NCBI GenBank assembly: GCA_905480575.1
Contig: CAJQQZ010000054.1
Coordinates: 31,210 to 95,209 of the forward strand
DNA: 64,000 nucleotides
From: an uncultured Alphaproteobacteria bacterium
GTDB lineage: Bacteria > Pseudomonadota > Alphaproteobacteria > UBA7985 > CAJQQZ01
Direction: 5' to 3'
The position numbers and the translations under genes were made by a program. How positions within the stretch are numbered: position 1 is the stretch's first letter; the number at the start of each line of letters is the position of its first letter. Shown piece after piece: positions 2,677-30,630 of this stretch. The notes beneath the pieces were generated by a model. It worked only from the letters and a program-made list of their open reading frames with translations, was not told where the DNA came from and ran no database searches.

Positions 2677-2721
2677 TTTAAACTCCTGAACATCAAATCT
2701 GTTCGTACTATGGCGGAGCGT

Positions 2722-2736
2722 ATAGGAAAATCCTAT
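2722..2736. promoter_or_regulatory. LysR-type T-N11-A operator (ATAGGAAAATCCTAT) in the divergent galB/lysR promoter region
   Basis: Perfect inverted repeat ATAGG-N5-CCTAT, 70 bp upstream of the LysR start and between divergently transcribed operons. Confidence 0.5.
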
Positions 2737-2805
2737 TTCAAAGTCGCGACAGGCTATAAGTTTTGGCTATATCCGGTTGCCAATTGACGGTAAACAGTTT
2801 GGGTA

Positions 2806-4056: not shown

Positions 4057-4129
4057 CTTAAACCTCAAACGAACTTTACGGGCTTGGCACTAGAGTGATA
4101 GGTCTTGAGAAATCAAATGAGAGTTTATC

Positions 4130-5023: not shown

Positions 5024-5027
5024 AGAT

Positions 5028-6259
<1,232 letters not shown>

Positions 6260-6265
6260 AAACAT

Positions 6266-7213
6266 ATGCGTATTTGTGTAGCGGGTGCCGCAGGTGCCTT
6301 CGGAAAGAAACACCTCGATGCTTTGAGCGCCATTGATGGTGTTGAAGTAACGTCAATCGTGGGACGAACAGAGGAAACAATTGTTCCTTTTGCCAAAGAA
6401 CGCGGTATTGGGCATGCCACCACCGATCTGAACGAAAGCTTAGCGCGTGATGATGTTGATGCTGTGATCCTGTCAACACCAACACAGGTGCATGCCGCCC
6501 AATCCATCGCTTGTATGAGAGCAGGTAAGCATGTGCTGTGCGAAATTCCCATGTCGGACAGTTTGGCTGATGCAGAAGAAGTGGTGAAGGTTCAGGCTGA
6601 AACCGGTGTTGTGGGTATGGCGGGTCAAGTTCGCCGCTTTAACCCTTCGCACCAATGGATTCACAACAAGGTCAAAGCTGGCGCGCTTAACATTCAGCAG
6701 ATGGATGTTCAGACTTACTTCTTCCGTAGAACCAATACCAATGCCGCTGGCGGTCCACGAAGTTGGACGGACCATCTTCTGTGGCACCATGCTTGCCACA
6801 CCGTTGATCTGTTCATGTATCAAACCGGCGATGTACCAACTGAGATTTTTGGCCTTCAGGGTCCCAAACATCCAGATCTTGGCATCGCCATGGATATGAC
6901 GATTGGTATGAAAAATCCATCCGGCGCTTTGTGCACCCTGTCTCTTTCATTCAATAACGATGGACCGTTCGGTACTTTCTTCCGATATATTTGTGATAAC
7001 GGGACCTATGTTGCTAGTTATGATGATCTGTATGACGGTTGCAATAACCCGATTGATTTGTCCGGCGTCGCTGTTTCCAACAACGGCATTGAGCTCATTG
7101 ATCGTGAATTCATTTCAGCTATCAGAGAGGAAAGAGAACCAAACGCTTCTTTCCGCCAAACACTGCCAGCGATGAAGGTTCTTCATCAGATTGAAAAGAC
7201 AATGGGGGCCTAA
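6266..7213 (+). CDS. ligC: 4-carboxy-2-hydroxymuconate-6-semialdehyde dehydrogenase (Gfo/Idh/MocA family, LigC)
   Basis: 315 aa. The N-terminus MRICVAGAAGAFGKKHLDAL and internal blocks (RRFNPSHQWIHNK, SWTDHLLWHHACHTVDLF, LSLSFNNDGPFGTFFRYICDNGT) match LigC along its length. Confidence 0.9.
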   Translation: MRICVAGAAGAFGKKHLDALSAIDGVEVTSIVGRTEETIVPFAKERGIGHATTDLNESLARDDVDAVILSTPTQVHAAQSIACMRAGKHVLCEIPMSDSLADAEEVVKVQAETGVVGMAGQVRRFNPSHQWIHNKVKAGALNIQQMDVQTYFFRRTNTNAAGGPRSWTDHLLWHHACHTVDLFMYQTGDVPTEIFGLQGPKHPDLGIAMDMTIGMKNPSGALCTLSLSFNNDGPFGTFFRYICDNGTYVASYDDLYDGCNNPIDLSGVAVSNNGIELIDREFISAIREEREPNASFRQTLPAMKVLHQIEKTMGA

Positions 7214-10200
7214 ATTGAAGTTCTTTTCCAGCAAAAACCGTCCTGTCCATCTCGGCGGACTGCCGCTGGAAAATCTTGCTCGAACTCAAGGCTCAATCGA
7301 ACTAGAGGGGGTGCCAGCGATGGTGCCCCTTTCTTTTTCCAGAGACAATGGTCCTCAATCGATTGTTGCTGCCATGGGTGAGTACCAGGCAATGTTGGAT
7401 GCCATCCGCATTGGTGTTGTTAACCCTAAGCGAGCTGAATGCCCGGACGACCTGACAGAGCGTGCCAACCATCTCAAAGGCTTCGGCTATTTTTGTGATG
7501 CCACGATGGTCGGTGTTTGCAAGCTGCCTGATGCGGCGCTACTGAAGCAACCGATCAGAAATCCAGCGATCGATCAGCTGGCTGAAGATTTGCGAACGAA
7601 ACAGACGACGACTTTGTCATCTGGCATCGATGTGATCATGGCTGACCTGAAGGAGTCGATGTCGGTAGCGCCTTCATCCATTGAGGGCCATAGCCATGCG
7701 GTTGTGTTCCTCTATGAATCGCCTAGGGAACCAGGACAGCAGGAGGACGGTTGTGAATGGATACAAGATGCTTTGGCCGAACGTTCGGCTCTTCGCGCTA
7801 ATGAAACTGCGTCGGTATTAGCCAACTATCTGCGTGTGCTTGGTTACCAGGCTCGCGCGCACAGTCTTTCGACCAGTGATGTGGATCTGAACAAGCTAGC
7901 GGTCGCAGCCGGTTTGGTGGTTTCGGAACAGGGAGAGATGACCGCTCCCTTTGTTGGTCGAAAATTCGGCCTGGCCGCACTGACCACTGATTTCGCTATG
8001 GCTGAGGATATGCCCCTGGCCAGTCAAGCCTTATCGAACACAAATCGAAAGCCGCCTTATGCCAAACGTGGCTTCATCCAAGGCCTTCATCCCTTTGAAA
8101 AGCTCAAACGTGTCGAGAAACCAACGACCTTCATTGATGAAGACCGGGTACCTCGTGTGCCTAAGCGTACCGATATGTTTGCGCGCTCCCTTTTCGGGGA
8201 CCTCGGTAAAGGCCCGCAAGAAAATGCCCGCAATGGCAAGTATGTTCTGAAAGCACCGACATCTGCATCTCAAAGACGGGCATTGGGCGCATTTATTCTT
8301 TTACAAGACGGCGAACCGGCACCTGAGATTGCTGAGTTCGCAACAGACGCAGAACGCAATGCCGCCAATGTCAAAGCTGCGGCCTACTTCCTGGGCTGCG
8401 ACGCTGTTGGCATTTCACGCTGCCCAGAGTGGACTTGGTATTCTCATAACGCCATTGGTGAGGATGTTACGCCGCCCCACGACCAGGCGATCTCGATCAT
8501 TATCGACCAGGGTTATGAGACCATGGAGGGGGCTTCGGGAGACGACTGGATTTCTTGCGCGCAATCCATGCGGGCCTATCTGCGCTTCTCCTTGTTAGGA
8601 GGCGTGATCGCCAAACATATCCGCAATCTAGGTTATTCTGCGAAGGCTCACACTGTTGTCGATGGTGACGTTCTCCAGCCACCCCTGTTACTTCTCTCAG
8701 GCATGGGCGAGGTCAGCCGAATTGGCGAGGTCATTCTCAATCCCTATCTGGGCCCAAGACTGAAGTCCGGTGTTGTCACAACAACCATGCCACTGGCGCA
8801 TGACAAACCGATTGATTTCGGCATGCAAACTTTCTGCGAAAGCTGTAACAAGTGCGCTCGGGAATGTCCGTCGGGCGCGATTACGGCTGGACCGAAGCTG
8901 ATGTTCAACGGTTACGAGATTTGGAAGTCTGATAGCCAACGCTGCACGACCTATCGCATCGGCACGGAAGGTGGCGCGATGTGCGGGCGGTGCATGAAAA
9001 CCTGCCCTTGGAACCTAGAAGGTTTGTTTGCAGAAGCGCCGTTCCGCTGGGCAGCCATGAACATGCCGAGTACTGCCCCCTTCCTTGCCAAGCTGGATGA
9101 TATGGTCGGTAACGGCGGTCTCAATCCAATAAAGAAGTGGTGGTGGGATCTAGAGGCTCAAGCGGATGGTCGTTTCCGACCCACAGAAAAAGAGGTTAAC
9201 GCTCGGGATTTACAAAAGGAGTTGGACCTCAAGTATGAGGATCAAACGTTGGCGGTTTATCCAGCCAATCTCGCGCCGCACCCTTGGCCCTTTCCATTCC
9301 TCATGGACCGCGAAAAAGGCATTGAGGCCTACCAAACTATGATCACCGCCGAAGAATACAAGCTTCGGCTTGCGCGCGGTGAGACGGAAGATTTGGCTCA
9401 TGAATATACCATCCCCGGTGATGCGCCGGTGGTAAGGGTTGTGATTTCAAAAGCTGAGAAAATGACGGACGATGTCACCAAATATGAGTTTCGTTCTGTC
9501 GATGGCAGTGACTTGCCGAAGTGGTCAGCAGGTGCCCATCTGGATATTGTTGTGGCGCCAGAATTCCTGCGCCAATATTCGATGTCAGGTGACCCCGCGG
9601 ACAAGTCCCTTTATCAGATTGGCGTCCTACGCGAAGATGAAGGCAAGGGCGGTTCAAAGCTGATGCATCGGATCTTTAGCGAAGGCCGTAAGATCTTTAT
9701 CTCCAAACCGATCAATCATTTCCCTTTAGATGAGGCTGCGACGAAGACCTTTTTGATGGGCGGCGGCATCGGTGTGACGCCAATGATTGCTATGGCCCAC
9801 CGGTTGCATCGCGTCGGGGCAGAATTCGAACTCCATTATTCAGCCAAATCAAGATCGACAGCTGGCTATCTGGAAGATCTCGAGGCCGTACCCTGGAAGG
9901 ATAAAGTCCACCTTCACTTCTCTGATGAGAACTCACGTGCAGATCTGCAGGCCGTTTTAGATGCCTTCAAGGAAGGGCATCATGTCTACACCTGCGGCCC
10001 AGACCGTTACATGAATTCGGTCATCGAGGCAGCGGAACAGCAGAATTTTCCAGAAGAAAACCGCCATCTGGAATATTTCTCGGTTCCAGAATTACCTGAC
10101 TATGAAAACCATAACTTCACTCTCAAACTGACGAAATCAGGCAAAACACTTGCGATAGCGGCGGACCAATCGATCACCGATGTCCTGAATGAAAGCGGCT

Positions 10201-10376
10201 ATGCAATCGACGTAAAGTGCTCCGATGGCATTTGTGGGGTTTGCCAATGTGGCTTGGTCGCTGGTGATGTCGAACACCGCGATTTTGTCTTGTCCAACAA
10301 GCAGCGGGAAAAGACGATCATTCTTTGTCAGTCCCGGGCTGCTGAACCGGATGGTGAAATAGAAATCGATCTTTGA
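7191..10376 (+). CDS. Self-sufficient (BhbA-like) catabolic reductive dehalogenase. The N-terminal RdhA module with two 4Fe-4S motifs is fused to a C-terminal FNR-like plus 2Fe-2S reductase of the phthalate dioxygenase reductase/VanB type
   Basis: 1061 aa. RdhA-type motifs CESCNKCARECP and CGRCMKTCPWN. The C-terminal 320 aa carry FNR-like FMN/NAD folds (GGGIGVTPMIAMAH, YTCGP) and a plant-type ferredoxin motif, CSDGICGVCQC. No TAT signal and no rdhB anchor. Overlaps the ligC stop by 23 nt (alternative TTG start at 7215). Confidence 0.75.
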   Translation: MKRQWGPKLKFFSSKNRPVHLGGLPLENLARTQGSIELEGVPAMVPLSFSRDNGPQSIVAAMGEYQAMLDAIRIGVVNPKRAECPDDLTERANHLKGFGYFCDATMVGVCKLPDAALLKQPIRNPAIDQLAEDLRTKQTTTLSSGIDVIMADLKESMSVAPSSIEGHSHAVVFLYESPREPGQQEDGCEWIQDALAERSALRANETASVLANYLRVLGYQARAHSLSTSDVDLNKLAVAAGLVVSEQGEMTAPFVGRKFGLAALTTDFAMAEDMPLASQALSNTNRKPPYAKRGFIQGLHPFEKLKRVEKPTTFIDEDRVPRVPKRTDMFARSLFGDLGKGPQENARNGKYVLKAPTSASQRRALGAFILLQDGEPAPEIAEFATDAERNAANVKAAAYFLGCDAVGISRCPEWTWYSHNAIGEDVTPPHDQAISIIIDQGYETMEGASGDDWISCAQSMRAYLRFSLLGGVIAKHIRNLGYSAKAHTVVDGDVLQPPLLLLSGMGEVSRIGEVILNPYLGPRLKSGVVTTTMPLAHDKPIDFGMQTFCESCNKCARECPSGAITAGPKLMFNGYEIWKSDSQRCTTYRIGTEGGAMCGRCMKTCPWNLEGLFAEAPFRWAAMNMPSTAPFLAKLDDMVGNGGLNPIKKWWWDLEAQADGRFRPTEKEVNARDLQKELDLKYEDQTLAVYPANLAPHPWPFPFLMDREKGIEAYQTMITAEEYKLRLARGETEDLAHEYTIPGDAPVVRVVISKAEKMTDDVTKYEFRSVDGSDLPKWSAGAHLDIVVAPEFLRQYSMSGDPADKSLYQIGVLREDEGKGGSKLMHRIFSEGRKIFISKPINHFPLDEAATKTFLMGGGIGVTPMIAMAHRLHRVGAEFELHYSAKSRSTAGYLEDLEAVPWKDKVHLHFSDENSRADLQAVLDAFKEGHHVYTCGPDRYMNSVIEAAEQQNFPEENRHLEYFSVPELPDYENHNFTLKLTKSGKTLAIAADQSITDVLNESGYAIDVKCSDGICGVCQCGLVAGDVEHRDFVLSNKQREKTIILCQSRAAEPDGEIEIDL

Positions 10377-15026: not shown

Positions 15027-16208
15027 CTACTTCGATTGAAAAGCTGAAGAACAAGCAACTTGTGTCTTCATCGCTGCTAGATAAAGATCATGAAAATAAC
15101 GCATAGCATGTTCTGAAATGTCATGGGCTTCAGGATCGGTCACATACCAGCCTTGTTGGTAACCACGTTGATGCATGCCACGTTGAACGTTTTCACAAAG
15201 CGCTTTGTCTTCCGCTGAGACCGTTGGGAACCATTCGGCACGTTGATTGTGGCGCTGTTCCATTTCTGGGTCTGTTGGAGCAGGAGGCTTCAGAGTTACC
15301 GATTTTCGCATAGTGCTGTCAGGCGTGACGGGGGTTACTGTTGATAGGTAGAAACCTTTGGCACCGGGGAATTGCCCAATAAGAGTGTTAGGGAAAAGCC
15401 ACCAAAAATGCCCGGTTGTGATGTCGTGATTGCGGTCCAGCGGAAAGGCTTTGTTTTCTGCTTTATCGTCTGTTGGTGCGATCTGAAAAGTGTAGTTCTG
15501 ATTGAGAGCGAATGACGATTTGCCGAGATCCATCATGTCATTGAATTGATCATGGGCGTTCAAGCAGTGATGGCATTCCAAATAATTATCGACCAGGACT
15601 TTCCAATTGGCCTCGCAAGGATAGTCGATGTCTAATTGAACGGTTTCTTCAGGTCGCATAGATGGGAGATCAGGCTCAATCGATAATATTTGTTCCTCAA
15701 GCCCTGGAGCGAAAACAGAGAGCGGTTGAGCCTGTGGGTCTAAGTTGATGAAAATGAAATCAACTAGGTGATCCACACGAATTTCCGACAAACAGATTTC
15801 GTCGTTTGATGGACCGGCAAGTGTCTCCGAGCTGCGGGCACCGATGCGTTTACCATCGAGGGCAAAGGTCCAAGCGTGATAGGGGCAAGTAATTCGGCTT
15901 TTCTTGCCTGATCCTTCCACCAGTTGATGGCCTCGGTGGGGGCAGACATTGTAGAAGGCGCGGATTTTATCTTCACGATCTTTGACCAAAAATAAGTTTT
16001 GATCGAAGATTTTGATCGTAACGAAGGAGCCTGGGTCTGACAGTTCGCTGGCATGACAAGCATAAAGCCAAGAGCGGAAGAAGACCTTTTCCTTCTCTTG
16101 GTTGAGCTCATCCTTGGAGATGTAATAGATTGCCTCGAGAGTCCTTTTACGGTCCGTTTCAATCGTTTGGCAGTCTAGTTGATCAAGCATCGCTTTATCT
16201 CTCACCAA
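15027..16208 (-). CDS. Rieske non-heme iron oxygenase alpha subunit (aromatic ring-hydroxylating / demethylase type)
   Basis: Rieske motif CPHRGHQL…CPYHAW and mononuclear iron motif DNYLECHHCLNAH. 393 aa. No adjacent reductase or ferredoxin gene. Confidence 0.8.
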   Translation of the reverse strand: MVRDKAMLDQLDCQTIETDRKRTLEAIYYISKDELNQEKEKVFFRSWLYACHASELSDPGSFVTIKIFDQNLFLVKDREDKIRAFYNVCPHRGHQLVEGSGKKSRITCPYHAWTFALDGKRIGARSSETLAGPSNDEICLSEIRVDHLVDFIFINLDPQAQPLSVFAPGLEEQILSIEPDLPSMRPEETVQLDIDYPCEANWKVLVDNYLECHHCLNAHDQFNDMMDLGKSSFALNQNYTFQIAPTDDKAENKAFPLDRNHDITTGHFWWLFPNTLIGQFPGAKGFYLSTVTPVTPDSTMRKSVTLKPPAPTDPEMEQRHNQRAEWFPTVSAEDKALCENVQRGMHQRGYQQGWYVTDPEAHDISEHAMRYFHDLYLAAMKTQVACSSAFQSK

Positions 16209-16390: not shown

Positions 16391-16873
16391 TTGTTACGAA
16401 ATGGGTTTGCCATGACCGAAAATTCGCTTAACCGCCGCTCCGCGCTGTTGATGGCTGCTGGTGCCATGACGACTTTGATTTTCCCAACGCTCGGTTTTGC
16501 CAAGAGCCTCGTTTCAAAAACCAAAGCCGGTGTGGCCATCAAGGGTCATGACACTACTGCCTATTTTCAGAAGGGCTCTCATGGCAAAGGCAGCAAGACT
16601 CATGTCGTTGAATGGGAAGGTGCGAAGTGGCGTTTTGCTTCAGCGGAAGAGGCCGCTTTGTTCAAAACAAACCCTGCTGCTTACACGCCGCAGTTTTGTG
16701 GATTTTGCACCCGGGCGATGTCTTTTGGATCAAAGGTCCATTCCAATCCAAAGGTCTGGCGCATTTACAAGGACAAACTCTATTTGTTCGCGGCACCCAA
16801 AGGCGGTAAGTTCTTTGACAAAGGTCAGGATAAAATGATCGAGAAGGCCCAAGCTAATTGGGACAACCTTTAA
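16391..16873 (+). CDS. YHS-domain protein with twin-arginine signal
   Basis: NRRSALLMAAGA TAT-like signal. YHS/TRASH-like region GHDTTAYF…CGFC. Alternative start at MTENS (16412). Confidence 0.6.
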   Translation: MLRNGFAMTENSLNRRSALLMAAGAMTTLIFPTLGFAKSLVSKTKAGVAIKGHDTTAYFQKGSHGKGSKTHVVEWEGAKWRFASAEEAALFKTNPAAYTPQFCGFCTRAMSFGSKVHSNPKVWRIYKDKLYLFAAPKGGKFFDKGQDKMIEKAQANWDNL

Positions 16874-16888
16874 GCCACTAGAGGAAAC

Positions 16889-17563
16889 ATGGAACTTAAC
16901 GCCAATTTTGACGAGCGTGTCTCGGTACACTGTCATTCCAATCCTTGGGTGCCTTCCCCCATGGGCGGGGTTGAGCGCCGAATGTTGGATCGCTTAGGCG
17001 ATGAGGTGGCACGCGCCACAACCATTGTTCGCTTTGCACCTGGCAGCCAGTTCTCGCCGCATGTTCACGAGGGCGGAGAGGAATTCCTGGTTCTGGAAGG
17101 TGTTTTTCAGGACGAACATGGCGACTTCCCAGCGGGCTCATATATCCGCAATCCACCAACGACGTCGCACACACCAGGATCAGAAGCGGGGTGCACAATC
17201 TTCGTAAAGCTTTGGCAATTTGATTTGGCCGATAGAACGGAAGTGTTCCACAGACCTGAAGATCAAACCTTCAAAGCAATTGGTGCTGAGGTAGAGCAGT
17301 TCCTGCTTCACAAAGATGACAATGAAGCGGTCACAATGGAAAAGTGGGCAGCCGGGGCAACAGTTGAGTTACAAGCCCCAGACGGCTTGGAAGTTTTGGT
17401 CCTTGAGGGTGGTTTTAGTGAAGGTGAGGAGAGTTTTGAAAAATACTCTTGGCTCAGACTGCCACGGGGTGCATCGGTGACCGCCAAGGTTGGAACAGAA
17501 GGTGCCAAAGTTTGGGTGAAGCGAGGTCATCTTGCACGGCAGCCAAAAGCGCCTAATCCTTAA
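16889..17563 (+). CDS. Bicupin protein with ChrR-like (anti-sigma factor C-terminal type) cupin domains
   Basis: Two cupin repeats. The first, PHVHEGGEEFLVLEGVFQDEHGDFPAGSYIRNPPTTSHTPGSEAGCTIFVKLWQF, resembles the ChrR C-terminal domain. Confidence 0.55.
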   Translation: MELNANFDERVSVHCHSNPWVPSPMGGVERRMLDRLGDEVARATTIVRFAPGSQFSPHVHEGGEEFLVLEGVFQDEHGDFPAGSYIRNPPTTSHTPGSEAGCTIFVKLWQFDLADRTEVFHRPEDQTFKAIGAEVEQFLLHKDDNEAVTMEKWAAGATVELQAPDGLEVLVLEGGFSEGEESFEKYSWLRLPRGASVTAKVGTEGAKVWVKRGHLARQPKAPNP

Positions 17564-21892: not shown

Positions 21893-22621
21893 CTATGCAC
21901 AAACGTCCGCGTAGGCTCTCACAGCATTTGCCCAACCATTTTCAACAGCCATGCAAGTGAGGTGATGACCAATAGAAAGCTCATGAAAAGGAATGGCATC
22001 CAGCAGCTTGGGCAAGTTCTCTACAGTGAGATCGTGGCCACCGTTGAGGCGCAGACCTAGTTCTGTCGCTCGGTCGGTTGCGGCTTTGATGGCTGCCAAT
22101 TCGGCGTCACTATTGCCGAGGTCAAAAGCGTGGGCATAAGGACCGGTGAAAATCTCAATAGCCTGAATACCGCCCTCAGCAGCAAGCTCCACTGATGCCG
22201 GGTCAGCATCGCAGAAAACAGCGACACGTGTATGAGCGCTCAAGCGATCAACGGTCTCTTTCAGCAAATCATGCTCGTCGCATGGTCTCCAGCCACGATC
22301 TGATGTGATCTCGTTTGGCATTACAGGCACGACGGTGAACTGTGTTGGTTTGATCACCTCTGACATTCGGATCAGTTCAGGGCGCAAATCACCTTCAATG
22401 TTAAACTCAATCTCACCGGACTGAATTTGAGGCAGCTTGGAGAGCGCAACAACGTCATCCAACCGAATATGGCGCTGGTCAGCACGAGGATGGACAGTCA
22501 AGCCTTTGGCGCCATTATCGATGGCCAGCTGGCCAAAGTGCAAAAGATCAGGGGCGGAACCTCCGCGAGAGTTTCTCAGCAGGGCGATTTTGTTTAAATT
22601 TACAGATAATAAAGTAGCCAT
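21893..22621 (-). CDS. pdxJ: Pyridoxine 5'-phosphate synthase
   Basis: Start at MATLLSVNLNKIALLRNSRG, 243 aa, PdxJ TIM-barrel signature. The track ORF extends upstream spuriously. Confidence 0.85.
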   Translation of the reverse strand: MATLLSVNLNKIALLRNSRGGSAPDLLHFGQLAIDNGAKGLTVHPRADQRHIRLDDVVALSKLPQIQSGEIEFNIEGDLRPELIRMSEVIKPTQFTVVPVMPNEITSDRGWRPCDEHDLLKETVDRLSAHTRVAVFCDADPASVELAAEGGIQAIEIFTGPYAHAFDLGNSDAELAAIKAATDRATELGLRLNGGHDLTVENLPKLLDAIPFHELSIGHHLTCMAVENGWANAVRAYADVCA

Positions 22622-22701
22622 GAGTTTAGAAATAGCGCGAGATTTGGACTGAATAAATACATAGAATCGAACAAAATCATCAGACCAATTTTCGGATAGC
22701 G

Positions 22702-23256
22702 CTAAGTAGTTTCTATTCCGAGCACTAAGTTTGCCCAATGATTGAGCTGCTTACGTTCCTCTCCTGAGAGTTTCTGCCCTTGTTTGACAGCCTTGCTTTT
22801 CAAGACAGAGAAAACACCGCCGACAGCAAAGGAAATAGCCTCGTTTGAAGGCCGGCTTCGCTTTAACGCCAACTCATAAGTCAACACTTCGCAAACAGAC
22901 CGTTGAAAACGAGCAAAGATAAAGTCATTCGCTGGACCATCCTCTTTGAAAAACTCGTCTTTGTCACTGATATGATCGAACAACCAGTCAAACGTGGCCC
23001 ATTCACCCTTTGGTGTTTTGTGGCTTTGAACAAAGGCTTTTGCGGTCTCCATGCCATGGAAGAAGCCGAAATCTAAGAGCTCAAACTTGTTGCCGAAATG
23101 AAGATAGAAGGAAGACCGAGCAACGTTTGCTTCTGCGCAAATCCCGCGAACGTTTATGCTGTCCCAGCTTTGTATTCTCGATTGATTGAGAAGTGCTTCC
23201 CACAGCAAGTTTTTGGTCTTTAGAATTCTGCGGTCTTCTTGTTTGTTTTCGGACAT
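22702..23256 (-). CDS. TetR-family transcriptional regulator
   Basis: N-terminal TetR HTH (ILKTKNLLWEALLNQ…ICAEANVARSSFYLHF). Divergent from the sterol-desaturase-like gene. Confidence 0.8.
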   Translation of the reverse strand: MSENKQEDRRILKTKNLLWEALLNQSRIQSWDSINVRGICAEANVARSSFYLHFGNKFELLDFGFFHGMETAKAFVQSHKTPKGEWATFDWLFDHISDKDEFFKEDGPANDFIFARFQRSVCEVLTYELALKRSRPSNEAISFAVGGVFSVLKSKAVKQGQKLSGEERKQLNHWANLVLGIETT

Positions 23257-23269
23257 TTATTTGCTCACT

Positions 23270-23342
23270 TGTCCATTTATGGACAGAATTTGAAACAGCG
23301 ATCTTCGCTCTCGGTCAAAAGCACACTAATGGACAAGTGTCC
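23270..23342. promoter_or_regulatory. Two operator-like palindromes sharing TGTCC/GGACA half-sites (TGTCCATTTATGGACA at 23270-23285; GGACAAGTGTCC at 23331-23342) in the TetR / desaturase divergent promoter
   Basis: Perfect inverted repeats, read directly from the sequence, between the TetR start (23256) and the hydroxylase start (23370). Confidence 0.5.
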
Positions 23343-23369
23343 GATAATTCAACCAAATTAGGCAAGCAT

Positions 23370-24278
23370 ATGAGCAATAAGGTTTCAGGCGCGGCGAGCT
23401 CCAATGACGGTAGAGTGAAGCTGTTACTACGTTGGGGACTTTATCCTTTGAGCTGGTTTGTGGTTCTAACGGCTTTCCACATCCTTCTTACACATGAGAT
23501 AAATCCGCGCTTGGTCTGGGCCAGTACGATTGGTTTGTTAGGGGTCACGTATTTGCTGGTTGAATGGCGGTTCCCTTATGAGCAGCGCTGGTCAATGAGT
23601 TTTAAGTCGTTCCTGGCCGATATGAAATTTGCGATCATCAACACAGCTTTTGTAACGGCAGTGTCAGCAACATTGGCGTTGTTTGCGATCTCCCTATCGA
23701 GCGAAGTTGTTGGTCCTGCAACCTTCTGGCCCGTGCCAGTACAATTGCTGCTCTGCCTTTTGATATTCGAGGCAATCAATTATTCCATTCATCGTCTGAT
23801 GCACGAGGGGAGGGGCGCGGTCGGTCGGTTTCTGTGGCGCGTTCATGCAGCACATCACCTGCCTCCTCGTCTCTACTTGATCATGCATGCCGTCTTTCAC
23901 CCCCTCAATGGCATTCTGATCCAGGTCGTGGCGTTGGTGTTGCCCATCTGGTTCATGGGTTACAATCAGGAAGTCGTTGTGATGTTTCTGATCATTAACG
24001 GCTTCCACGGCCTTATCAGCCACTTCAATGTCGATGTCAGAATGGGATGGCTGAACTATCTCTTTATCGGGTCGGAACTTCATCGTTACCACCACAGTGC
24101 CAAAGTGAATGAAGCCAAAAACTATGGTGCTACCCTATCACTCTACGACCAGCTGTTTGGAACTTTCTATTACAAGCCAGGTGCGGCCCCAAAAAATCTA
24201 GGTGTTAGTCCTAAGTCTGGGTTGCCACCTTATGAGCGCAGCTTCGACGTACTCAAGTTGCCATTTGTCAGGAAGTAA
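23370..24278 (+). CDS. Sterol desaturase / fatty acid hydroxylase superfamily membrane enzyme
   Basis: Histidine boxes HRLMHE, HAAHH, HRYHH. Multi-TM. Start at MSNKVSG. Confidence 0.75.
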   Translation: MSNKVSGAASSNDGRVKLLLRWGLYPLSWFVVLTAFHILLTHEINPRLVWASTIGLLGVTYLLVEWRFPYEQRWSMSFKSFLADMKFAIINTAFVTAVSATLALFAISLSSEVVGPATFWPVPVQLLLCLLIFEAINYSIHRLMHEGRGAVGRFLWRVHAAHHLPPRLYLIMHAVFHPLNGILIQVVALVLPIWFMGYNQEVVVMFLIINGFHGLISHFNVDVRMGWLNYLFIGSELHRYHHSAKVNEAKNYGATLSLYDQLFGTFYYKPGAAPKNLGVSPKSGLPPYERSFDVLKLPFVRK

Positions 24279-24287
24279 AGCTCAGTT

Positions 24288-25031
24288 CTAAAATCTGAGC
24301 TCTTCTTTGACTTGTGCTTGGAAGGATCGGCTGACAGGCAGTTCGGCATTGTCGACCATCTGTAGGAAGAGCTTGCCGTCTACTCTCTTAGGGCCAGCGA
24401 CTGCTTCTTTAGACACCCAATGTGAACGATGGATCTGCAAGCCATTGTAATCCTCGAGCTCAGCCAGCGCATCGGAAAAGCGCATCAGCAGCATTTCTTT
24501 ACCTTTGGAAGTGACGACCTCAACGTAGTGGTCCTGCATAGAGAGGTACGAAAGTTCTGTGCCGAGATGATGAGGGAGCCGACGAAAGAAGGGGATTTCC
24601 TTTTCAGCCGATTGCGGGCGAAGTTTTCGGATCAAAAAGTTGATTGCGCATGACACAGCTAAGGCGATCGGCACTACAATTAACAACAGATCGAAAAACC
24701 CGGGGACATTGGGGTCAGCACCCCAAACAGTCATGTTGACCAGAAAAACTACTGTTGTGACAGCAAGGCTCGTTAGGACGGTGTTAGAAGCAATCTGATA
24801 GATGGCTTTATCATCGGTAAAAAAAGTATTGGCCGCTCTGGTCACGATATCTGAGATGAAACAGATCAGCAGCGTTGATACGCCCCAGTATCCAATCCGC
24901 CCAGGCCACGACAAGATCTTGTCTGTGCCGAAGGGACTAACAACAATTAAAATTACAGCGACCGCAGCATAGATCACCAGCCGGGTCGGGGCAAAGATCG
25001 TTGCCTGCATTTCACGAAGCGTCAAATTCAA
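24288..25031 (-). CDS. Membrane-anchored LytTR-family DNA-binding regulator
   Basis: Four N-terminal TM helices plus a C-terminal LytTR domain (…GLQIHRSHWVSKEAV…). Confidence 0.65.
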   Translation of the reverse strand: MNLTLREMQATIFAPTRLVIYAAVAVILIVVSPFGTDKILSWPGRIGYWGVSTLLICFISDIVTRAANTFFTDDKAIYQIASNTVLTSLAVTTVVFLVNMTVWGADPNVPGFFDLLLIVVPIALAVSCAINFLIRKLRPQSAEKEIPFFRRLPHHLGTELSYLSMQDHYVEVVTSKGKEMLLMRFSDALAELEDYNGLQIHRSHWVSKEAVAGPKRVDGKLFLQMVDNAELPVSRSFQAQVKEELRF

Positions 25032-25169
25032 CTCCCGCCATTCACGTAGTTTTGGGGGCCTTTTACGAACGGTCGCTGGCCTGTCCCAAAAAGCCCCTTC
25101 ATAACAAGCCCACCGCTGAGTTACAGCGAAAACACTGTGAGTTTTATACCTAGCTATTAAGGAAATACC

Positions 25170-25601
25170 ATGCGTTTTTTAAAGACAGCTTTGATCACTT
25201 CTGGCGTTCTATTTGCAGGCACTGCGTTGCACGCTGCTGATCTGACCGTAACAGTTACCGGCCTAGAAACGCCAGGCGGCACGATCTCCGTTGGCGTCAT
25301 GGACGGTGCAGAAGGCTTTCCAAACAAGCGTAAAGCATTGACAGGTAAGCGCGTCGAAAACGCCGTTGCAGGCTCTAATAGTTTCACGATCGGGGGCCTC
25401 TCTGCCGGACGTTATGCCATCGCTGGGTGGTACGATGAAAACACCAACGGCAAATTCGATACCAATCTGATGGGTATGCCAAACGAGCCTTATGGTTTCT
25501 CAAACGATGCTCGCGGTTCCTTCGGTCCGCCAAGCTTCGAAGACGCCTCTTTTGTCGTTGGTGAAGAAAATCTTTCCATCACTTTTCAAATGGCAAAATA
25601 G
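25170..25601 (+). CDS. Secreted DUF2141-family protein
   Basis: Signal peptide followed by the DUF2141-like pattern (VGVMDGAEGFPN…YAIAGWYDENTNGKFDTNLMGMPNEPYGFSND). Confidence 0.6.
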   Translation: MRFLKTALITSGVLFAGTALHAADLTVTVTGLETPGGTISVGVMDGAEGFPNKRKALTGKRVENAVAGSNSFTIGGLSAGRYAIAGWYDENTNGKFDTNLMGMPNEPYGFSNDARGSFGPPSFEDASFVVGEENLSITFQMAK

Positions 25602-25616
25602 AGCGGGAGAGAAAAC

Positions 25617-27122
25617 ATGGATCGTCGTCAATTATTGCAAGGTTTTGCATTGTCTTTGGCCGCTGGAATGGTGACTGGTTCACCAGTCCTGGCTGCCGGA
25701 GACAACTGGAAAGAAGACTTTACCCGGGCACTCAAGCAAAAACCTTGGTTATTAGGTTACAAGGGCGTGGATCAAAACTTCAAAAAGACCAATCTAAAAA
25801 TCGACGGCAAGTTGCCGGAAAACTTGAAAGGTATCTTCTACCGCAATGGTCCCGCGCGTCACGAGGTTGGTGACCTTCGTTATCGGCATTGGTTTGATGG
25901 TGACGGTATGATCCATGCTTTTAACTTCGATGGTGAAAGTGTGACCCATCACGGGCGTTTTGTCGACACGATCAAAACTGAAAAGGAAACAGAGGCGGGT
26001 AGAGCGCTGTTCCAAACTTTCGGAACAGCAGGTTCCTCTCTCACATCTGGGTGCAGTGCCGATGAGGTTAACGTGGCCAACATCTCTGTTATTAAACATA
26101 ACGGGGAACTCTTGGCGCTTTGGGAAGGTGGGTCGGCTTATCGCCTTGACGGAGAAACGCTTGAAACACTTGGTCTCAAAACTTGGACAGAGGAGACAGC
26201 AGGTCTGCCGTTCAGTGCACATCCCAGAGTCGACCAAGACGGGACGCTGTGGAATTTCGGCTACGCGCCCATATTCGGCGCGTTGATTGTCTACCGAATT
26301 AGCCCTACCGGACAACTCATTGACAGGGCGCTGGTACAGAAGCCTGCGACGCCAATGGTGCATGATTTTCTGATCACTGAGAACCATCTTATTCTCATTC
26401 TACCACCTTACCACTTTGACAACGCGAGCGAAGGTGCCTTCGTTGATCGCTTTAATTGGTCGCCAGAGAAAGGCGGGCGTGCCTTGATCATTGATAAAAA
26501 TAATCTGGCGGCTCAGCACGAGATCGAGCTGCCACCGTTTTGGGTGTTTCACTTTGCTAACGCTTTTGAGGACAGCAGCGGTGACATCTGTTTTGATGCG
26601 CCGATCTATCAAACACCAGATGTCATGACCTCGAGTTTCAGAGAAATCATGCGTGGCAATGAGGTTGGGAGCGACAGTGCTCAACTCATGAAATGTCGCT
26701 TAAATCCTTTAACCGGCAACTTTGACATGACGGAGATAGAAGAGGCGGTCGCCTCTGAGTTCCCTAGGATCGACCAGCGCATGCAAGGTCGCCGTCACCG
26801 TTTTACGGCAGTTATGCGCGGACAAGAGGGTGCTGCCTACAAAGGGATCAATCAGCTTATGTCGATCGACCATCAACAACAAACCACTGAAAGCTATACT
26901 TTCCCAGCCACAGAGATGGCGGAAGAGCATGTCTTTGTTCCTGACCCCGACAGTATAGAGGAGGGCAAAGGATGGTTGATGGGAACGTCGCTTGATTACA
27001 AGCGAGGCAAGTCAGCGCTCAATCTGTTTGATGCTCAGCGGGTTTCAGATGGACCGGTTGCCCGTATGGAAATGGACTACGCAATACCGCTCGGTTTGCA
27101 TGGCAATTTCTACAGCAGTTAG
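25617..27122 (+). CDS. Carotenoid oxygenase (CCD/RPE65) family dioxygenase with TAT signal peptide
   Basis: MDRRQLLQGFALSLAAG…AAG twin-arginine signal. CCO-family blocks (FYRNGPARHEVGDLRYRHWFDGDGMIHAF, HDF, FHFANAFE). Confidence 0.8.
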   Translation: MDRRQLLQGFALSLAAGMVTGSPVLAAGDNWKEDFTRALKQKPWLLGYKGVDQNFKKTNLKIDGKLPENLKGIFYRNGPARHEVGDLRYRHWFDGDGMIHAFNFDGESVTHHGRFVDTIKTEKETEAGRALFQTFGTAGSSLTSGCSADEVNVANISVIKHNGELLALWEGGSAYRLDGETLETLGLKTWTEETAGLPFSAHPRVDQDGTLWNFGYAPIFGALIVYRISPTGQLIDRALVQKPATPMVHDFLITENHLILILPPYHFDNASEGAFVDRFNWSPEKGGRALIIDKNNLAAQHEIELPPFWVFHFANAFEDSSGDICFDAPIYQTPDVMTSSFREIMRGNEVGSDSAQLMKCRLNPLTGNFDMTEIEEAVASEFPRIDQRMQGRRHRFTAVMRGQEGAAYKGINQLMSIDHQQQTTESYTFPATEMAEEHVFVPDPDSIEEGKGWLMGTSLDYKRGKSALNLFDAQRVSDGPVARMEMDYAIPLGLHGNFYSS

Positions 27123-27134
27123 GGGAGAGTAACG

Positions 27135-27536
27135 TTGAACATAGAAGTCTTCAATCAAGCCTCGCTGGCAGTGCAGGTTCATATTATTCTGGCGCTCGTT
27201 GCGATCCTCGTGAGCCCTGCCATCTTGGTTTTGAAAAAGGGGTCCAAATTGCATAAATTGCTGGGCAAGTTTTGGGCCTTGATCATGCTGGGGTTGGCGC
27301 TGGGGTCTTTTGGTATCAACTCATTCGATATGCCTTATGGGGTCAGCCCAATTCATATCGTTTCAGTAATCGTTCTGATTTCCGTGCCTCTGGGTGTCTA
27401 TCACATTCGTAGAGGTAATCTACGGGGCCACAAACAGGCGATGTTGGGCACCATGATAGGCGGCATTTTGGGGGCTGGGTTACCGGCTTTACTCTCGCCT
27501 GACCGGGCCCTCAATCTTATGTTTTTCGGAAGCTAA
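27135..27536 (+). CDS. Small integral membrane protein (DUF2306-like)
   Basis: Four hydrophobic helices. Probable TTG start, 12 nt after the CCO stop. Confidence 0.45.
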   Translation: MNIEVFNQASLAVQVHIILALVAILVSPAILVLKKGSKLHKLLGKFWALIMLGLALGSFGINSFDMPYGVSPIHIVSVIVLISVPLGVYHIRRGNLRGHKQAMLGTMIGGILGAGLPALLSPDRALNLMFFGS

Positions 27537-27538
27537 CC

Positions 27539-28018
27539 TTGCTTTATCAAATTATTATCAACGTGCCGCTTTGGGTTTGGCCGCTTTTTATCGGGCTACT
27601 CGCTATCGGCTTATTGGGTACGAGATCACGCCAAGCACCGCTCATCCTTTTCTGGTTCCTACCGCTTCTGGGGGCACTAGCAGTGAATTCAATGGCTGCT
27701 TTCGGAGCCACTGTTTTGGCATGGGCCGTGTTCGCCGTTTTCTACATAGCAGGCGGTCTGTTTGGCTTTAACTATCAGAAGAAAATTGTGCTAGAGCGCA
27801 AGGGATCACGCGTTTCGCTCAAAGGCGAGTGGCTCACTCTAGTCACGATAATGATCATATTCTGGACCAATTTTGCCAGAGGTTTGATGACCGCGATTTT
27901 TCCGGACATCATAGCAAATCCAGCGACCATAGCGATTATCGCCGCGATCGTTGGTTCCGTCTCTGGGGTGTTTTTAGGCCGCTCGATACAAACGCTCTTC
28001 GGCAAAGTACCTGAGTAG
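27539..28018 (+). CDS. Integral membrane protein of unknown function
   Basis: Four to five hydrophobic segments. Contiguous with the preceding gene. Confidence 0.45.
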   Translation: MLYQIIINVPLWVWPLFIGLLAIGLLGTRSRQAPLILFWFLPLLGALAVNSMAAFGATVLAWAVFAVFYIAGGLFGFNYQKKIVLERKGSRVSLKGEWLTLVTIMIIFWTNFARGLMTAIFPDIIANPATIAIIAAIVGSVSGVFLGRSIQTLFGKVPE

Positions 28019-28020
28019 AA

Positions 28021-29091
28021 CTAGGCCGGAACGTTCCAAACCTGCCCCGGACGCAGGGCGCGGAAACGCTCTTCTGCAATAGCGTATTTGGTTTTGGCCG
28101 CTTTCAAATGGTTGATCTGATCGTCTATTGATTCATCCGTTAACTGAAAGGTTCCCCAGTGATGACCAAGGGTATAGCGAGCTCTGCAAAGCATATGCCC
28201 TTGAACGGCCTCGTCCGGATTTTGGTGCTGTGCTTTCATGAAATCACGGGGTTCAAAGGCGCCAAAAGGAAGAATGGCCAGGCGGAACTCACCGTATTTG
28301 GCAGCAGCCTCGCGGTAATTGTGGCCATCATGAAACCCAGTATCACCAATGTGATAGATGGCACCTCCTGGCGTCCCAATGACGAAGGCAGCCCACAGGG
28401 CATTGCGCCGATCGGTTGTGCCTCGAGCCGACCAATGATGCGTCGGTTCTAAGGTTACATTAACACCAGGAGTTAGTTCAATCTGGTCACCCCAATCACC
28501 GGCGACTGTACGTGCTCGGTAATACTTTTTATGAATGATCTTATCGTTACCCAAAGGGACGACGAACAAAGGATTGTGAGCCTTGACCAAACGGCCAATG
28601 GTTTTGATGTCGAGGTGATCGTAGTGATTATGGCTGATCAGGACGACATCTATGGGTGGAAGATTGTCAAAATCGATGCCGGGCTTGTTTACTCTGCTCG
28701 GACCAGCAAAGGCGACAGGACTAACACGATCCTACCACACGGGGTCCGTCAAGATATTGAGGCCAGCCGTCTGAATCAACGTGGTTGCTTGGCCAACGAA
28801 TGACAGCCTAAGCTGGGCACCTGCAACACGCACCGGTGGCTTGTCCTCAAAAGGGCTTGGGAAGGACTTGGGCCATTTTGGCCGGTCCGACAACAGCCAC
28901 TTCATCAGTTTCTTAAACCCCCTGGGATGTTCCCCACCAGGATTGAAAAACTGCAAGCCGTCAAAATGATCGGACTTGGGGCCAGAATAATAGGGATTGG
29001 TGTTGGTCTTTACGGCCCGATATCCGCCGCCAGTAAAAACGGCGGTAACCGACAATAAACCGAACCATTTAAAAAAAGATCTTCTACGCAT
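28021..29091 (-). pseudogene. MBL-fold metallo-hydrolase (TAT-signal, NAPE-PLD-like Zn hydrolase) interrupted by a single in-frame TAG at 28732-28734
   Basis: The same reading frame continues across the amber codon: …ILTDPVW*DRVSPVAFAGPSRVNKPGIDFDNLPPIDVVLISHNHYDHLDIKTIGRLVKAHNPLF… The HxHxDH zinc motif lies downstream of the stop. The track splits it into ORFs 28732..29091 and 28021..28590. Confidence 0.6.
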
Positions 29092-29178
29092 TCCTTCAAT
29101 AACAGCATTGGCCGGAGAAATTCAATTGCTCTTGATGAGAAATCGACTAACTTTCTTTTGGAACAAAAGGATCATTCG

Positions 29179-30630
29179 ATGTCAGACTTAGCTTTCCTCT
29201 CAGCATCCGAACTGGTTGCCAAAATAAAAACAAAGGAGATTTCAGCGCTAGAACTGTTGGAACATTTTTGGGCGCGCAAACAAAGATTAGATCCAGCCCT
29301 CAATTCCATTATTTTTGACCAGATCGAAAAGGCTCGAGAAAAAGCCAAGGAGGCTGACCAAGCGCTGGCAAAGGGCACTGACCTTGGGCCGCTTCATGGC
29401 CTGCCGATGACGGTCAAGGAATCGTATAATTGGATTGGCAGTCCGACGACCTGGGGCGTGCCAAGCTTGAAAGACAATTATCCAGCGACCAATGCAATAG
29501 CAGTGGATAGACTGGAAGCAGCTGGCGCGGTAATCTTTGGCAAAACCAATGTGCCTCTGCTGTTGTCGGATTGGCAAAGCTTCAATGACATCTATGGAAC
29601 AACGAGCTCACCCTGGGGAGAAGGGTTGATTCCGGGTGGTTCGTCTGGCGGCTCGGCGGCGGCTCTTGCGGCTGGTCTTACGGGACTAGAAGCAGGGAGC
29701 GACATTGGCGCTTCGATCCGAAACCCGGCCCACTACTGTGGTGTCTATGGCCACAAACCTACCTGGGAGGCTGTATCTCCAAGAGGGCAGGCGCTACCAG
29801 GTGTGTTGCCGAGCACGGACATCTCGGTCATTGGGCCTCTTGCTAGGTCAGCATACGATCTGGAAACGGCTTTGCAAGTGATGGTAGGTGGTGACGCAAT
29901 AGATTCACAAGCTTGGAAGCTAGAACTTCCAAACCCCAAACAAAAGAAACTCTCAGATTTCAAAGTCGCCGTTAAAATGGACTCCTTCGTTTCAGAAGTT
30001 GACCAAGAAATCCAAGAGAAGATTTTTGATTTGGCTCAGTTCCTGATCAAGCAAAGTGTGCAGGTTGATTTTGATGCTCGACCAGCTTTCTCCGACGAAG
30101 AGATCCACGATGTTTATATCGCGCTGCTGCGGTCGGCGACGTCACGGCGACAAACGGACGAGGACTATTTGGCAAACGTTGCGCAGGTCACCAACCTCGC
30201 GCCCGAAGACCAATCCTATCAGGCTAAACTCCTTCGCGCCTACGTCATGTCGCACCGCGATTGGTTGGGAGTGAACCAACGCCGTCACGAGTTGCGAATG
30301 ATTTGGAATAGCTTTTTTCAGGACTACGATGTGATGCTGTGCCCCGCTGCAGCTTCTTGTGCCCACCCCCATGACCAAGCGGGCGAGCGGCACGAACGAA
30401 CAATCCTTGTGAATGGCAAACAGGTTCCGACTACTGACCAATTGTTCTGGGCTGGTTATTCTGGCGTCACGCTAATGCCGTCCACGGTGGCACCCGCCGG
30501 TCAGAATGCGCAGGGACTGCCGATCGGTGTGCAAATCATCGGCGCACAATATCAGGACCTGAAGACCATCCGATTTGCGCAGTTGTTGGAACAGATCTAC
30601 GGGGGCTTCGTTTCTCCGCCGGGTTACTAA
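29179..30630 (+). CDS. Amidase (amidase-signature family)
   Basis: GGSSGGSAAALAAG signature plus Ser-cisSer-Lys context. RBS AAGGA upstream of ATG 29179. Confidence 0.85.
   Translation: MSDLAFLSASELVAKIKTKEISALELLEHFWARKQRLDPALNSIIFDQIEKAREKAKEADQALAKGTDLGPLHGLPMTVKESYNWIGSPTTWGVPSLKDNYPATNAIAVDRLEAAGAVIFGKTNVPLLLSDWQSFNDIYGTTSSPWGEGLIPGGSSGGSAAALAAGLTGLEAGSDIGASIRNPAHYCGVYGHKPTWEAVSPRGQALPGVLPSTDISVIGPLARSAYDLETALQVMVGGDAIDSQAWKLELPNPKQKKLSDFKVAVKMDSFVSEVDQEIQEKIFDLAQFLIKQSVQVDFDARPAFSDEEIHDVYIALLRSATSRRQTDEDYLANVAQVTNLAPEDQSYQAKLLRAYVMSHRDWLGVNQRRHELRMIWNSFFQDYDVMLCPAAASCAHPHDQAGERHERTILVNGKQVPTTDQLFWAGYSGVTLMPSTVAPAGQNAQGLPIGVQIIGAQYQDLKTIRFAQLLEQIYGGFVSPPGY

Follow-up and report, generated by a model that had tools for sequence, protein, structure and literature searches.

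A Tat-signal carotenoid-oxygenase-family enzyme forms a recurrent, predicted periplasmic cassette with a DUF2141 protein in proteobacteria

The characterised bacterial carotenoid and stilbene oxygenases are, as far as the papers found show, treated as cytoplasmic, and a review mentions neither signal peptides nor the periplasm (PMC5133782). The stretch of DNA analysed here (hereafter the window) comprises 64,000 nucleotides (nt) from an uncultured alphaproteobacterium (contig CAJQQZ010000054.1) and encodes a dioxygenase of the carotenoid cleavage oxygenase (CCO) family that carries a twin-arginine translocation (Tat) signal and is preceded by the gene for a secreted DUF2141 protein. This enzyme belongs to a large clade, encoded by at least 580 species-level genomes and by 117 Ralstonia megaplasmid records, which is predicted to be periplasmic and is nearly always accompanied by DUF2141. 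The locus around the pair is a composite of three modules, namely the DUF2141-CCO cassette, a LytTR-DUF2306-DUF6622 unit and a TetR-FA_hydroxylase unit. The anatomy of export, partner and regulators is well supported. The explanation favoured for the whole, with a probability of about 0.6, is that of these three modules, in which the CCO would cleave a polyene in the periplasm in the manner of the Synechocystis apocarotenoid-15,15'-oxygenase (ACO), together with DUF2141 and under LytTR control.

Export signals and the DUF2141 partner

The cassette comprises the following features, whose scores are to be read against curated cut-offs of 24.4 bits (PF09912) and 27 bits (PF03055):

25170-25601, plus strand: secreted DUF2141 protein of 143 amino acids (aa) (PF09912, 110.6 bits), with a Sec-type signal
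25617-27122, plus strand: Tat-signal CCO-family dioxygenase of 501 aa (PF03055, 384.9 bits, residues 52-499)
25617-25700, plus strand: signal peptide of the CCO (about residues 1-28), with a twin-arginine motif, disordered in the structural model

The N-terminus of the window CCO (MDRRQLLQGFALSLAAGMVTGSPVLAAG) is a twin-arginine signal, in which D-R-R-Q-L-L-Q is followed by GFALSLAAGMVTGSPV and then by LAAG. Among the 120 best homologues, 113 carry the motif RR-x-F-L-[QK], the exceptions being mostly apparent mis-called starts and one KR; the hydrophobic stretch and the Ala-rich end are kept in the same 113 sequences, and the remainder of the signal region is variable. Residues 1-28 are disordered in the AlphaFold2 (AF2) model, with a predicted local distance difference test (pLDDT) value below 50, and the alignment with ACO starts only at residue 37. 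Taken together, the frequency of the motif, the late start of this alignment and the disordered N-terminus make the Tat signal a defining mark of the whole clade, which is accordingly predicted to be periplasmic. The earlier note on this DNA had singled out the twin-arginine signal as unusual for lignostilbene or apocarotenoid oxygenases; judged by sequence the signal is real, and it is a property of the clade rather than a one-off. The DUF2141 protein has a Sec-type signal (MRFLKTALITSGVLFAGTALHA/AD), and a hydrophobic N-terminus is present in 112 of 120 homologues of this protein.

Relatives of the CCO were collected by scanning one genome per species for clade-specific peptide patterns; of at least 600 matching stretches, 580 encode such relatives. 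The best 80 of the at least 580 relatives, together with four loci from other look-ups, gave 82 non-redundant loci, which span the alpha-, beta- and gammaproteobacteria and include one Binatia genome. In 80 of these, the gene immediately upstream of the CCO, in the same orientation, is DUF2141; it is missing from this place in a truncated contig (L008) and in a Curvibacter metagenome-assembled genome (L058). In the 57 loci with a placeable start codon, the two genes are separated by a median gap of 12 nt, and the gap does not exceed 30 nt in 51; the genes flanking the pair are wholly different between lineages. Co-occurrence of the two families across genomes, which the earlier note had proposed as a check, is therefore strongly positive.

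These figures bear on a sceptical view, which takes both the adjacency and the RR motif at the N-terminus to be fortuitous and regards the CCO as cytoplasmic and DUF2141 as an unrelated neighbour retained by synteny. The occurrence of DUF2141 without CCO in several genomes speaks for it. However, it sits badly with an adjacency that persists across three proteobacterial classes and one Binatia genome amid wholly different flanks, with mostly short gaps, with an RR-x-F-L motif, hydrophobic stretch and Ala-rich end that are retained though other signal residues vary, and with the start of the ACO alignment beyond the putative signal. We regard it as very improbable.

The 117 records mentioned above are megaplasmids of the Ralstonia solanacearum complex and were found by a protein search of plasmids; a nucleotide search of plasmids gave almost no matches. 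In the single megaplasmid examined, that of R. solanacearum SL3022 (L177), DUF2141 lies 17 nt upstream of a CCO that starts MERRSFL. Type III effector genes (hlk2) are found there at a distance of a few kb from the pair (L177 4397-6563). Genome annotations label the two genes 'carotenoid oxygenase' and 'hypothetical protein'. In the Candidatus Binatia locus (L020:7494-11686), a TetR gene and a second, signal-less CCO come after the DUF2141/Tat-CCO pair. The second CCO resembles the lignostilbene dioxygenases (LSDs; E value 3.5e-86 to LsdA), and this locus may encode periplasmic and cytoplasmic alkene oxygenases side by side.

The AF2 model of DUF2141 is a beta-sandwich (pLDDT 90.7), and a sequence search of the PDB gave no match (best E value 0.81). 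The most conserved part of the family is a loop, H-D-x-N-x-N-G-K-L-D-T-N...G-x-P-x-E-P-Y-G-F-S-N-D-A, and G80, D89, P104, E106 and P121 are invariant. The loop contains D-x-N-x-N-G-x-x-D, whose positions 1, 3, 5, 6, 8 and 9 fit an EF-hand-like calcium site, which is a probable feature of the protein. Outside the CCO clade, DUF2141 adjoins crtG, the gene for carotenoid 2,2'-hydroxylase, in Sphingomonadales (PMC5989583, PMC9241875), and in Qipengyuania, DUF2141 shares an overlap of 4 nt with an FA_hydroxylase gene.

Active site and probable substrate of the oxygenase

The window CCO scores above the PF03055 cut-off, and its nearest sequence match in the PDB is ACO (E value 6e-53). ACO and an archaeal carotenoid cleavage dioxygenase (CCD) reach 183 bits, versus 116-135 bits for any LSD. 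The AF2 model of the enzyme (pLDDT 89.3) has the seven-bladed beta-propeller fold, with template modelling (TM) scores in Foldseek of 0.83/0.87 to the ACO structure 2biw and of 0.77-0.89 to other CCOs. The earlier note had made its proposal depend on four conserved iron-ligating histidines, and the alignment contains all of them. H202, H249, H312 and H495 are invariant in the 32 members of a clade alignment that reaches down to 39% identity, and they correspond to H183/H238/H304/H484 of ACO and to H167/H218/H282/H472 of LsdA, whose sequence was recovered from the PDB alignment and then aligned with ACO and the clade. The second-shell glutamates E170, E381 and E437 are invariant in the clade as well; E170 corresponds to ACO E150, and E381 and E437 to the EFP and GEP motifs of ACO.

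Two further positions separate the two types of enzyme. Phe135 and Trp169 of the window CCO correspond to F113 and W149 of ACO, where LsdA has Tyr101 and Lys134, the pair by which stilbene oxygenases bind the 4-hydroxyphenyl group; within the clade, position 135 is Phe in 31 of 32 members and position 169 is Trp in all 32. In PbLSD and NOV1, Lys135, the counterpart of LsdA Lys134, binds the hydroxyl group of the stilbene resveratrol, and the same lysine shuts a tunnel that is left open in carotenoid-cleaving members (PMC6097328). The NCBIfam equivalogs for LSD, NOV2 and apocarotenoid 13,14-dioxygenase are all missed widely: the window CCO obtains 201.9 bits with NF053778 (LSD; cut-off 800), 156 bits with NF053780 (cut-off 650) and 187.8 bits with an NF052295-type carotenoid dioxygenase model (cut-off 675). 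The iron ligands, the fold, the Phe/Trp pair and the missed equivalogs thus indicate by sequence and model that the window enzyme is a true CCO, ACO-like rather than LSD-like, and the orthologue of no characterised enzyme.

The earlier note had listed stilbenoids among the possible substrates. These are unlikely substrates of the window CCO because the Tyr/Lys pair of the lignostilbene dioxygenases is missing, its place being taken by residues that are invariant or nearly so in the clade. The main rival to a polyene substrate is nevertheless a phenylpropanoid one: the enzyme would be a periplasmic dioxygenase of the lignostilbene, isoeugenol or stilbenoid type, treating plant phenylpropanoid alkenes before uptake and feeding aromatic catabolism. 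The LSD model does give the top NCBIfam score, genes of the LigB, LigC-like, PrpF, Rieske and HpaB types are present in the window, PadR-type regulators lie upstream in three loci, the Binatia locus couples the cassette with a second, LSD-like CCO, and many hosts are plant-associated. Against this, the top score is far under the equivalog cut-off, the aromatic-catabolism genes, at a distance of 9-25 kb or more, do not recur as neighbours of the cassette, ACO and the archaeal CCD are nearer both by sequence and by fold, and the replacement of Tyr/Lys by Phe/Trp across the clade is exactly as in ACO. Opposed as it is by these predicted active-site residues, the phenylpropanoid reading appears improbable, and a carotenoid- or apocarotenoid-like polyene is the most likely substrate as judged from the alignments.

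Predicted LytTR-type regulation and the neighbouring modules

The other features of the locus are listed below; the curated cut-offs are 22.6 bits for PF04397 and 31.6 bits for PF10067:

22702-23256, minus strand: TetR-family repressor (PF00440, 27.7 bits), divergent from the hydroxylase gene
23266-23342, no strand: operator region with two inverted repeats that have the half-site TGTCCA/TGGACA in common, the arms being kept in the syntenic relative L001
23370-24278, plus strand: FA_hydroxylase-family membrane di-iron enzyme of 302 aa (PF04116, 91.8 bits)
24288-25031, minus strand: membrane LytTR one-component regulator (PF04397, 46.5 bits, residues 159-245), divergent from the operon
25041-25070, plus strand: direct-repeat boxes TTCACGTAG and TTTACGAAC, candidate LytTR sites, with starts 21 nt apart
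27135-27536, plus strand: short DUF2306 membrane protein of 133 aa with four transmembrane helices (PF10067, 40 bits)
27539-28018, plus strand: DUF6622-like protein of 159 aa with four transmembrane segments, the last gene of the operon; itself without a Pfam match, some of its homologues carrying PF20327

The DUF2141, CCO, DUF2306 and 159-aa genes are co-oriented, with gaps of 15, 12 and 2 nt and a GGAG-like ribosome-binding site before each. The same locus was found in independent marine metagenome assemblies, and a relative, L001, is fully syntenic (its CCO is 70% identical to that of the window). Profile matches and open reading frames agree with the genes, twin-arginine signal and short gaps reported earlier; since all the genes and the signals of both CCO and DUF2141 were found in place, that description was correct. 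The proposal that all seven genes serve a single pathway fared worse: FA_hydroxylase, TetR, DUF2306 and the 159-aa protein adjoin a CCO only in L001. An Rfam scan of 22600-29200 matched no RNA family, and a scan for consensus promoters and terminators was uninformative, since its counts were the same as in shuffled sequences.

Regulators of the LytTR type are neighbours of the CCO in 50 of the 82 loci, in two arrangements. In 14 loci, a membrane LytTR gene lies divergently upstream of DUF2141-CCO, as in the window. In about 36 others, mostly from gammaproteobacteria, genes for a LytS-like kinase (PF06580) and a Response_reg-LytTR regulator come immediately downstream of the CCO gene, and stop and start codons overlap. 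The membrane LytTR gene noted beside the pair in the window is thus one case of a recurrent association. PadR is found in 3 loci, and about 30, mainly from betaproteobacteria and including Ralstonia and Variovorax, have no adjacent regulator. The window regulator itself consists of three hydrophobic N-terminal segments and a C-terminal LytTR domain, and its TTG start at 25031 is backed by the conserved N-terminal peptide T-L-R-E. A sensor domain common to the LytS-like kinases and the membrane LytTR proteins was considered and rejected, as the two show no homology (hhalign probability 20%).

Within the 64-kb window the pair of boxes TTCACGTAG and TTTACGAAC is unique; relative to the start codon of DUF2141, they are located 129 and 108 nt upstream. 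A further copy at 25011-25019 was discounted, since it falls within the open reading frame of LytTR and specifies its conserved peptide L-R-E. All 13 of 13 membrane-LytTR loci have a TTCACG box upstream of DUF2141, versus 1.2 in shuffled sequences, and the box is also present 112-189 nt upstream (9 times within 112-137 nt) in 11 of 31 loci without an adjacent regulator. The kinase/regulator loci instead carry (T/A)TTC(G/A)TC(G/C)C repeats 21 nt apart, and the gammaproteobacterial boxes TTTCGTCGCA resemble the site of AlgR, CCGTTCGTC (PMC4064291). In Ralstonia (L177), three boxes are found upstream at 21-nt intervals, GTTCATCGC, GTTTGCGCC and GTTTGTCGC. Degenerate box pairs with a spacing of 20-22 nt are present in 11 of 32, 6 of 13 and 15 of 31 loci of the three classes, against fewer than 1 in shuffles and 2-3.5 in the real sequences at other spacings. 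Control of the operon by LytTR-type proteins is the natural reading of this sequence pattern. The LytTR-DUF2141 intergenic region (window 25032-25169 versus L001:7426-7569) is 94% identical between the two loci, whereas DUF2141 and CCO are only 72% and 70% identical. This degree of conservation goes far beyond what two boxes alone would need, and no Rfam family matches the region.

The association was also examined in reverse, starting from the 80 closest metagenomic homologues of the window LytTR protein (L093-L172). A CCO adjoins only one of them, and the idea that this membrane LytTR family is a dedicated CCO regulator was dropped. Instead, a short DUF2306 gene lies divergently upstream of LytTR in at least 42 of the 80 loci (38 of the 60 with enough upstream sequence), and a homologue of the 159-aa protein is next to LytTR in 17. 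In Thalassobius, LytTR is followed divergently by DUF2306 and the 159-aa homologue, the plain form of the unit. DUF2306 and the DUF6622-like protein, which the earlier note had placed in the CCO pathway, therefore go with LytTR rather than with the oxygenase. LytTR-DUF2306-DUF6622 reads from these sequence comparisons as an independent alphaproteobacterial module, older than the arrival of the cassette in the window lineage, and the reverse counts together with Thalassobius indicate that the window operon is a DUF2141-CCO cassette set between the promoter and the genes of this older unit.

In the short DUF2306 proteins, H16, H40, H74 and H99 are invariant in 43 of 43 sequences, one opening each transmembrane helix. 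The DUF2306 family is predicted to bind haem (bioRxiv 10.64898/2025.12.11.692455), and a fungal member is required for alkene epoxidation (PMC12895699). The widespread LytTR/DUF2306 module (L093-L172 and L176:2747-4462) may represent a membrane protein that binds haem or a metal and is controlled by LytTR; speculatively, its involvement in the oxidation of lipophilic alkenes would fit the context.

The regulators also allow the cassette to be seen mainly as a signal generator, in which the periplasmic CCO would make a small aldehyde or ketone from a polyene of the envelope or of a host, to be sensed by the membrane LytTR protein or the LytS-like kinase; enzyme and regulator would then serve sensing and not catabolism or protection. 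The co-transcription, in about 36 loci, of the enzyme genes with kinase and response regulator genes immediately downstream, the membrane-embedded LytTR protein beside the pair in 14, upstream repeats suggestive of autoregulation and the lack of conserved downstream catabolic genes among the recurrent neighbours of the 82 loci all lend it some weight. Yet about 30 loci, Ralstonia and Variovorax included, have no adjacent regulator, the transmembrane domains of the kinase and LytTR proteins are unrelated, and operon-adjacent regulators more often sense a substrate. Moreover, with a CCO next to a single one of the 80 closest homologues, the LytTR sensor domain is not specific to the CCO. Generation of a signal as the main function is therefore doubtful.

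The third module is best seen as a separate, self-contained divergent repressor-enzyme unit with conserved operators, unrelated to the CCO. A search for FA_hydroxylase near the other CCO loci returned only L001 and one distant match in L080. The two operator palindromes described in the earlier note between TetR and the hydroxylase are present as inverted repeats with a common half-site, TGTCCAT-TT-ATGGACA at 23270-23285 and TGGACA-AG-TGTCC at 23330-23342, both within a 12-nt perfectly complementary pair (23266-23277 and 23328-23339). The operator arms are conserved in L001 and the spacer between them diverges. Two identities of the enzyme were tried and rejected: it is not OlsE (119.5 bits against a cut-off of 475), nor is it a CrtG orthologue (30% identity over 143 aa to the Qipengyuania CrtG-type hydroxylase).

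Several other genes of the window deserve mention. A convergent metallo-beta-lactamase (MBL) fold gene (Lactamase_B_2/3; 28021-29091, minus strand) begins 2 nt past the stop codon of the 159-aa gene and contains a single in-frame TAG at 28732-28734, the corresponding codon of L001 being TCA (Ser). Gene calls in the independent assemblies L091 and L092 are split likewise, and the gene is either a population-fixed pseudogene or subject to stop-codon read-through. Its N-terminus (MRRRSFFKWFGLLSV) also resembles a Tat signal. MBL-fold homologues (in Sneathiella with an amidase as well) are found within 4-8 kb of DUF2141-CCO in a few distant genomes (L003:1-1929, L030 and L041), a weak recurrence that may be due to chance. 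The aromatic ring-cleavage genes at 217-7213 and 15027-16208 encode a PrpF-family isomerase, a LysR protein, LigB, a LigC-like GFO/IDH/MocA oxidoreductase and a Rieske oxygenase, and they indicate protocatechuate- or gallate-type catabolism. An iron-sulfur protein of 1061 aa (7191-10376) has 4Fe-4S dicluster, DmmA-like N-terminal and 2Fe-2S ferredoxin domains, with about 540 N-terminal residues that have no Pfam match at an E value of 1e-5. A ChrR-type cupin (PF12973, two domain copies) follows a 160-aa protein with a weak YHS-domain match at 16391-17563, and an adjacent gene for an extracytoplasmic function (ECF) sigma factor is absent. Finally, an aldehyde:ferredoxin oxidoreductase-family gene (tungsten/molybdenum type) at 54240-55955 is found in what is apparently an aerobic marine alphaproteobacterium.

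Proposed mechanism and comparison with known systems

The favoured reading translates into the following scheme. Given its twin-arginine signal, the CCO would be translocated across the inner membrane in the folded state, as a seven-bladed propeller, and probably in complex with its iron. Once in the periplasm, it would split a lipophilic polyene with O2 at a C=C bond, which would yield two carbonyl products. The source of the polyene could be the envelope of the cell itself; for non-pigmented hosts that are associated with plants or algae, an external supply is more probable. DUF2141 would act stoichiometrically with the CCO, for example by extracting or presenting a membrane-embedded polyene; we infer this role, like the substrate, from context, in the case of DUF2141 because of its tight gene coupling to the CCO and its translational coupling to crtG in Sphingomonadales. 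LytTR-family regulators would bind the direct-repeat boxes, spaced by about 21 nt and located roughly 100-130 nt upstream of DUF2141. Since the cassette lies inside a pre-existing LytTR-DUF2306-DUF6622 unit, all four genes past the divergent promoter would be co-regulated. The products of the CCO would either be removed or be used as signals.

A number of observations weigh against this reading. First, the window CCO is only about 27-30% identical to ACO (about 27% in the structural alignment), so that its regiospecificity cannot be inferred. Second, Foldseek returned only generic beta-sandwiches for DUF2141 (best TM 0.46), which give no functional clue, and DUF2141 also stands alone in unrelated contexts in Flavobacteriales, Desulfurivibrio and others; it is therefore no dedicated CCO subunit. 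Its pairings with crtG and CCO and these solitary copies thus characterise DUF2141 as a general secreted module that, in at least two cases, has been joined to an iron oxygenase of carotenoids; this is the best independent hint on the class of substrate, though no more than a hint. Third, the consensus of the upstream boxes varies between lineages. Fourth, PadR in three loci and the aromatic-catabolism genes of the window would fit a phenolic substrate as well. Finally, the 64-kb window contains no crt, rhodopsin or aldehyde-processing genes, and none are visible among the recurrent neighbours. Many hosts of the CCO are associated with plants or algae, and Ralstonia at least is not known to be carotenogenic. 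Taken together with the missing crt, rhodopsin and catabolic genes, this favours a polyene of carotenoid or apocarotenoid type that is taken from outside or from the envelope.

A bolder extension would make DUF2141 and the Tat-CCO a widespread device for periplasmic apocarotenoid processing, by which plant- or alga-associated proteobacteria, many of them probably non-pigmented, would capture carotenoids of the environment or of their own envelope, with a Ca2+-dependent DUF2141 presenting the polyene and with products feeding LytTR-type membrane sensors. Its users may include Ralstonia solanacearum, Variovorax, Acidovorax, marine Rhodobacterales and Pseudomonadales. As a whole this proposal is rather unlikely; if true, it would parallel, on the bacterial side, the apocarotenoid signalling of plants and would give a role to DUF2141 beside crtG as well.

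No paper linking a CCO to Tat, the periplasm, DUF2141, LytTR or Ralstonia was found in the searchable literature, nor one describing a LytTR system tied to a CCO. DUF2141 gains a second, independent link to carotenoid oxygenation after crtG, and an alkene-cleaving enzyme is tied to LytTR regulators, whose signals are mostly unknown. Ralstonia solanacearum and Variovorax offer genetically tractable hosts for a substrate search. Should the substrate prove to be a host or algal carotenoid, the cassette would represent a novel way for heterotrophic bacteria to read or exploit the pigments of phototrophs.

Among known systems, ACO (Diox1, 2BIW) is nearest to the window CCO in sequence and fold, with the same four His, three Glu and Phe/Trp residues, and the chemistry is probably alike, namely O2-dependent cleavage of a polyene C=C bond. 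ACO differs in having no signal peptide and in being cytosolic and membrane-associated, whereas the window CCO has a 28-residue Tat signal, a DUF2141 neighbour and predicted LytTR-type regulation. The LSDs (LsdA, NOV1, PbLSD) have superfamily, fold and iron ligands in common with the window CCO, but it lacks their Tyr101/Lys134 phenol-binding pair and scores far under their equivalog cut-off; the characterised LSDs among the PDB references align with it only from about residue 58, past its signal peptide. The crtG-DUF2141 pair of Sphingomonadales likewise couples a secreted DUF2141 protein tightly to an iron-dependent carotenoid oxygenase. The partner there is an integral-membrane di-iron hydroxylase of the FA_hydroxylase family and here a CCO, and the window's own FA_hydroxylase, unlike that partner, is not of the CrtG type. 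On the regulatory side, two-component systems of the AlgZ/AlgR type and membrane LytTR one-component regulators have the LytTR domain in common with the window regulator, and their target sites are short direct repeats about two helical turns apart, which the candidate boxes of the window resemble. In the window regulator a transmembrane sensor domain is fused directly to the LytTR domain. Lcp and RoxA are secreted oxygenases, Lcp by way of the Tat pathway, and they attack lipophilic isoprenoid polymers at C=C bonds outside the cytoplasm. These polyisoprene oxygenases are unrelated haem proteins, and their likeness to the window CCO is functional only.

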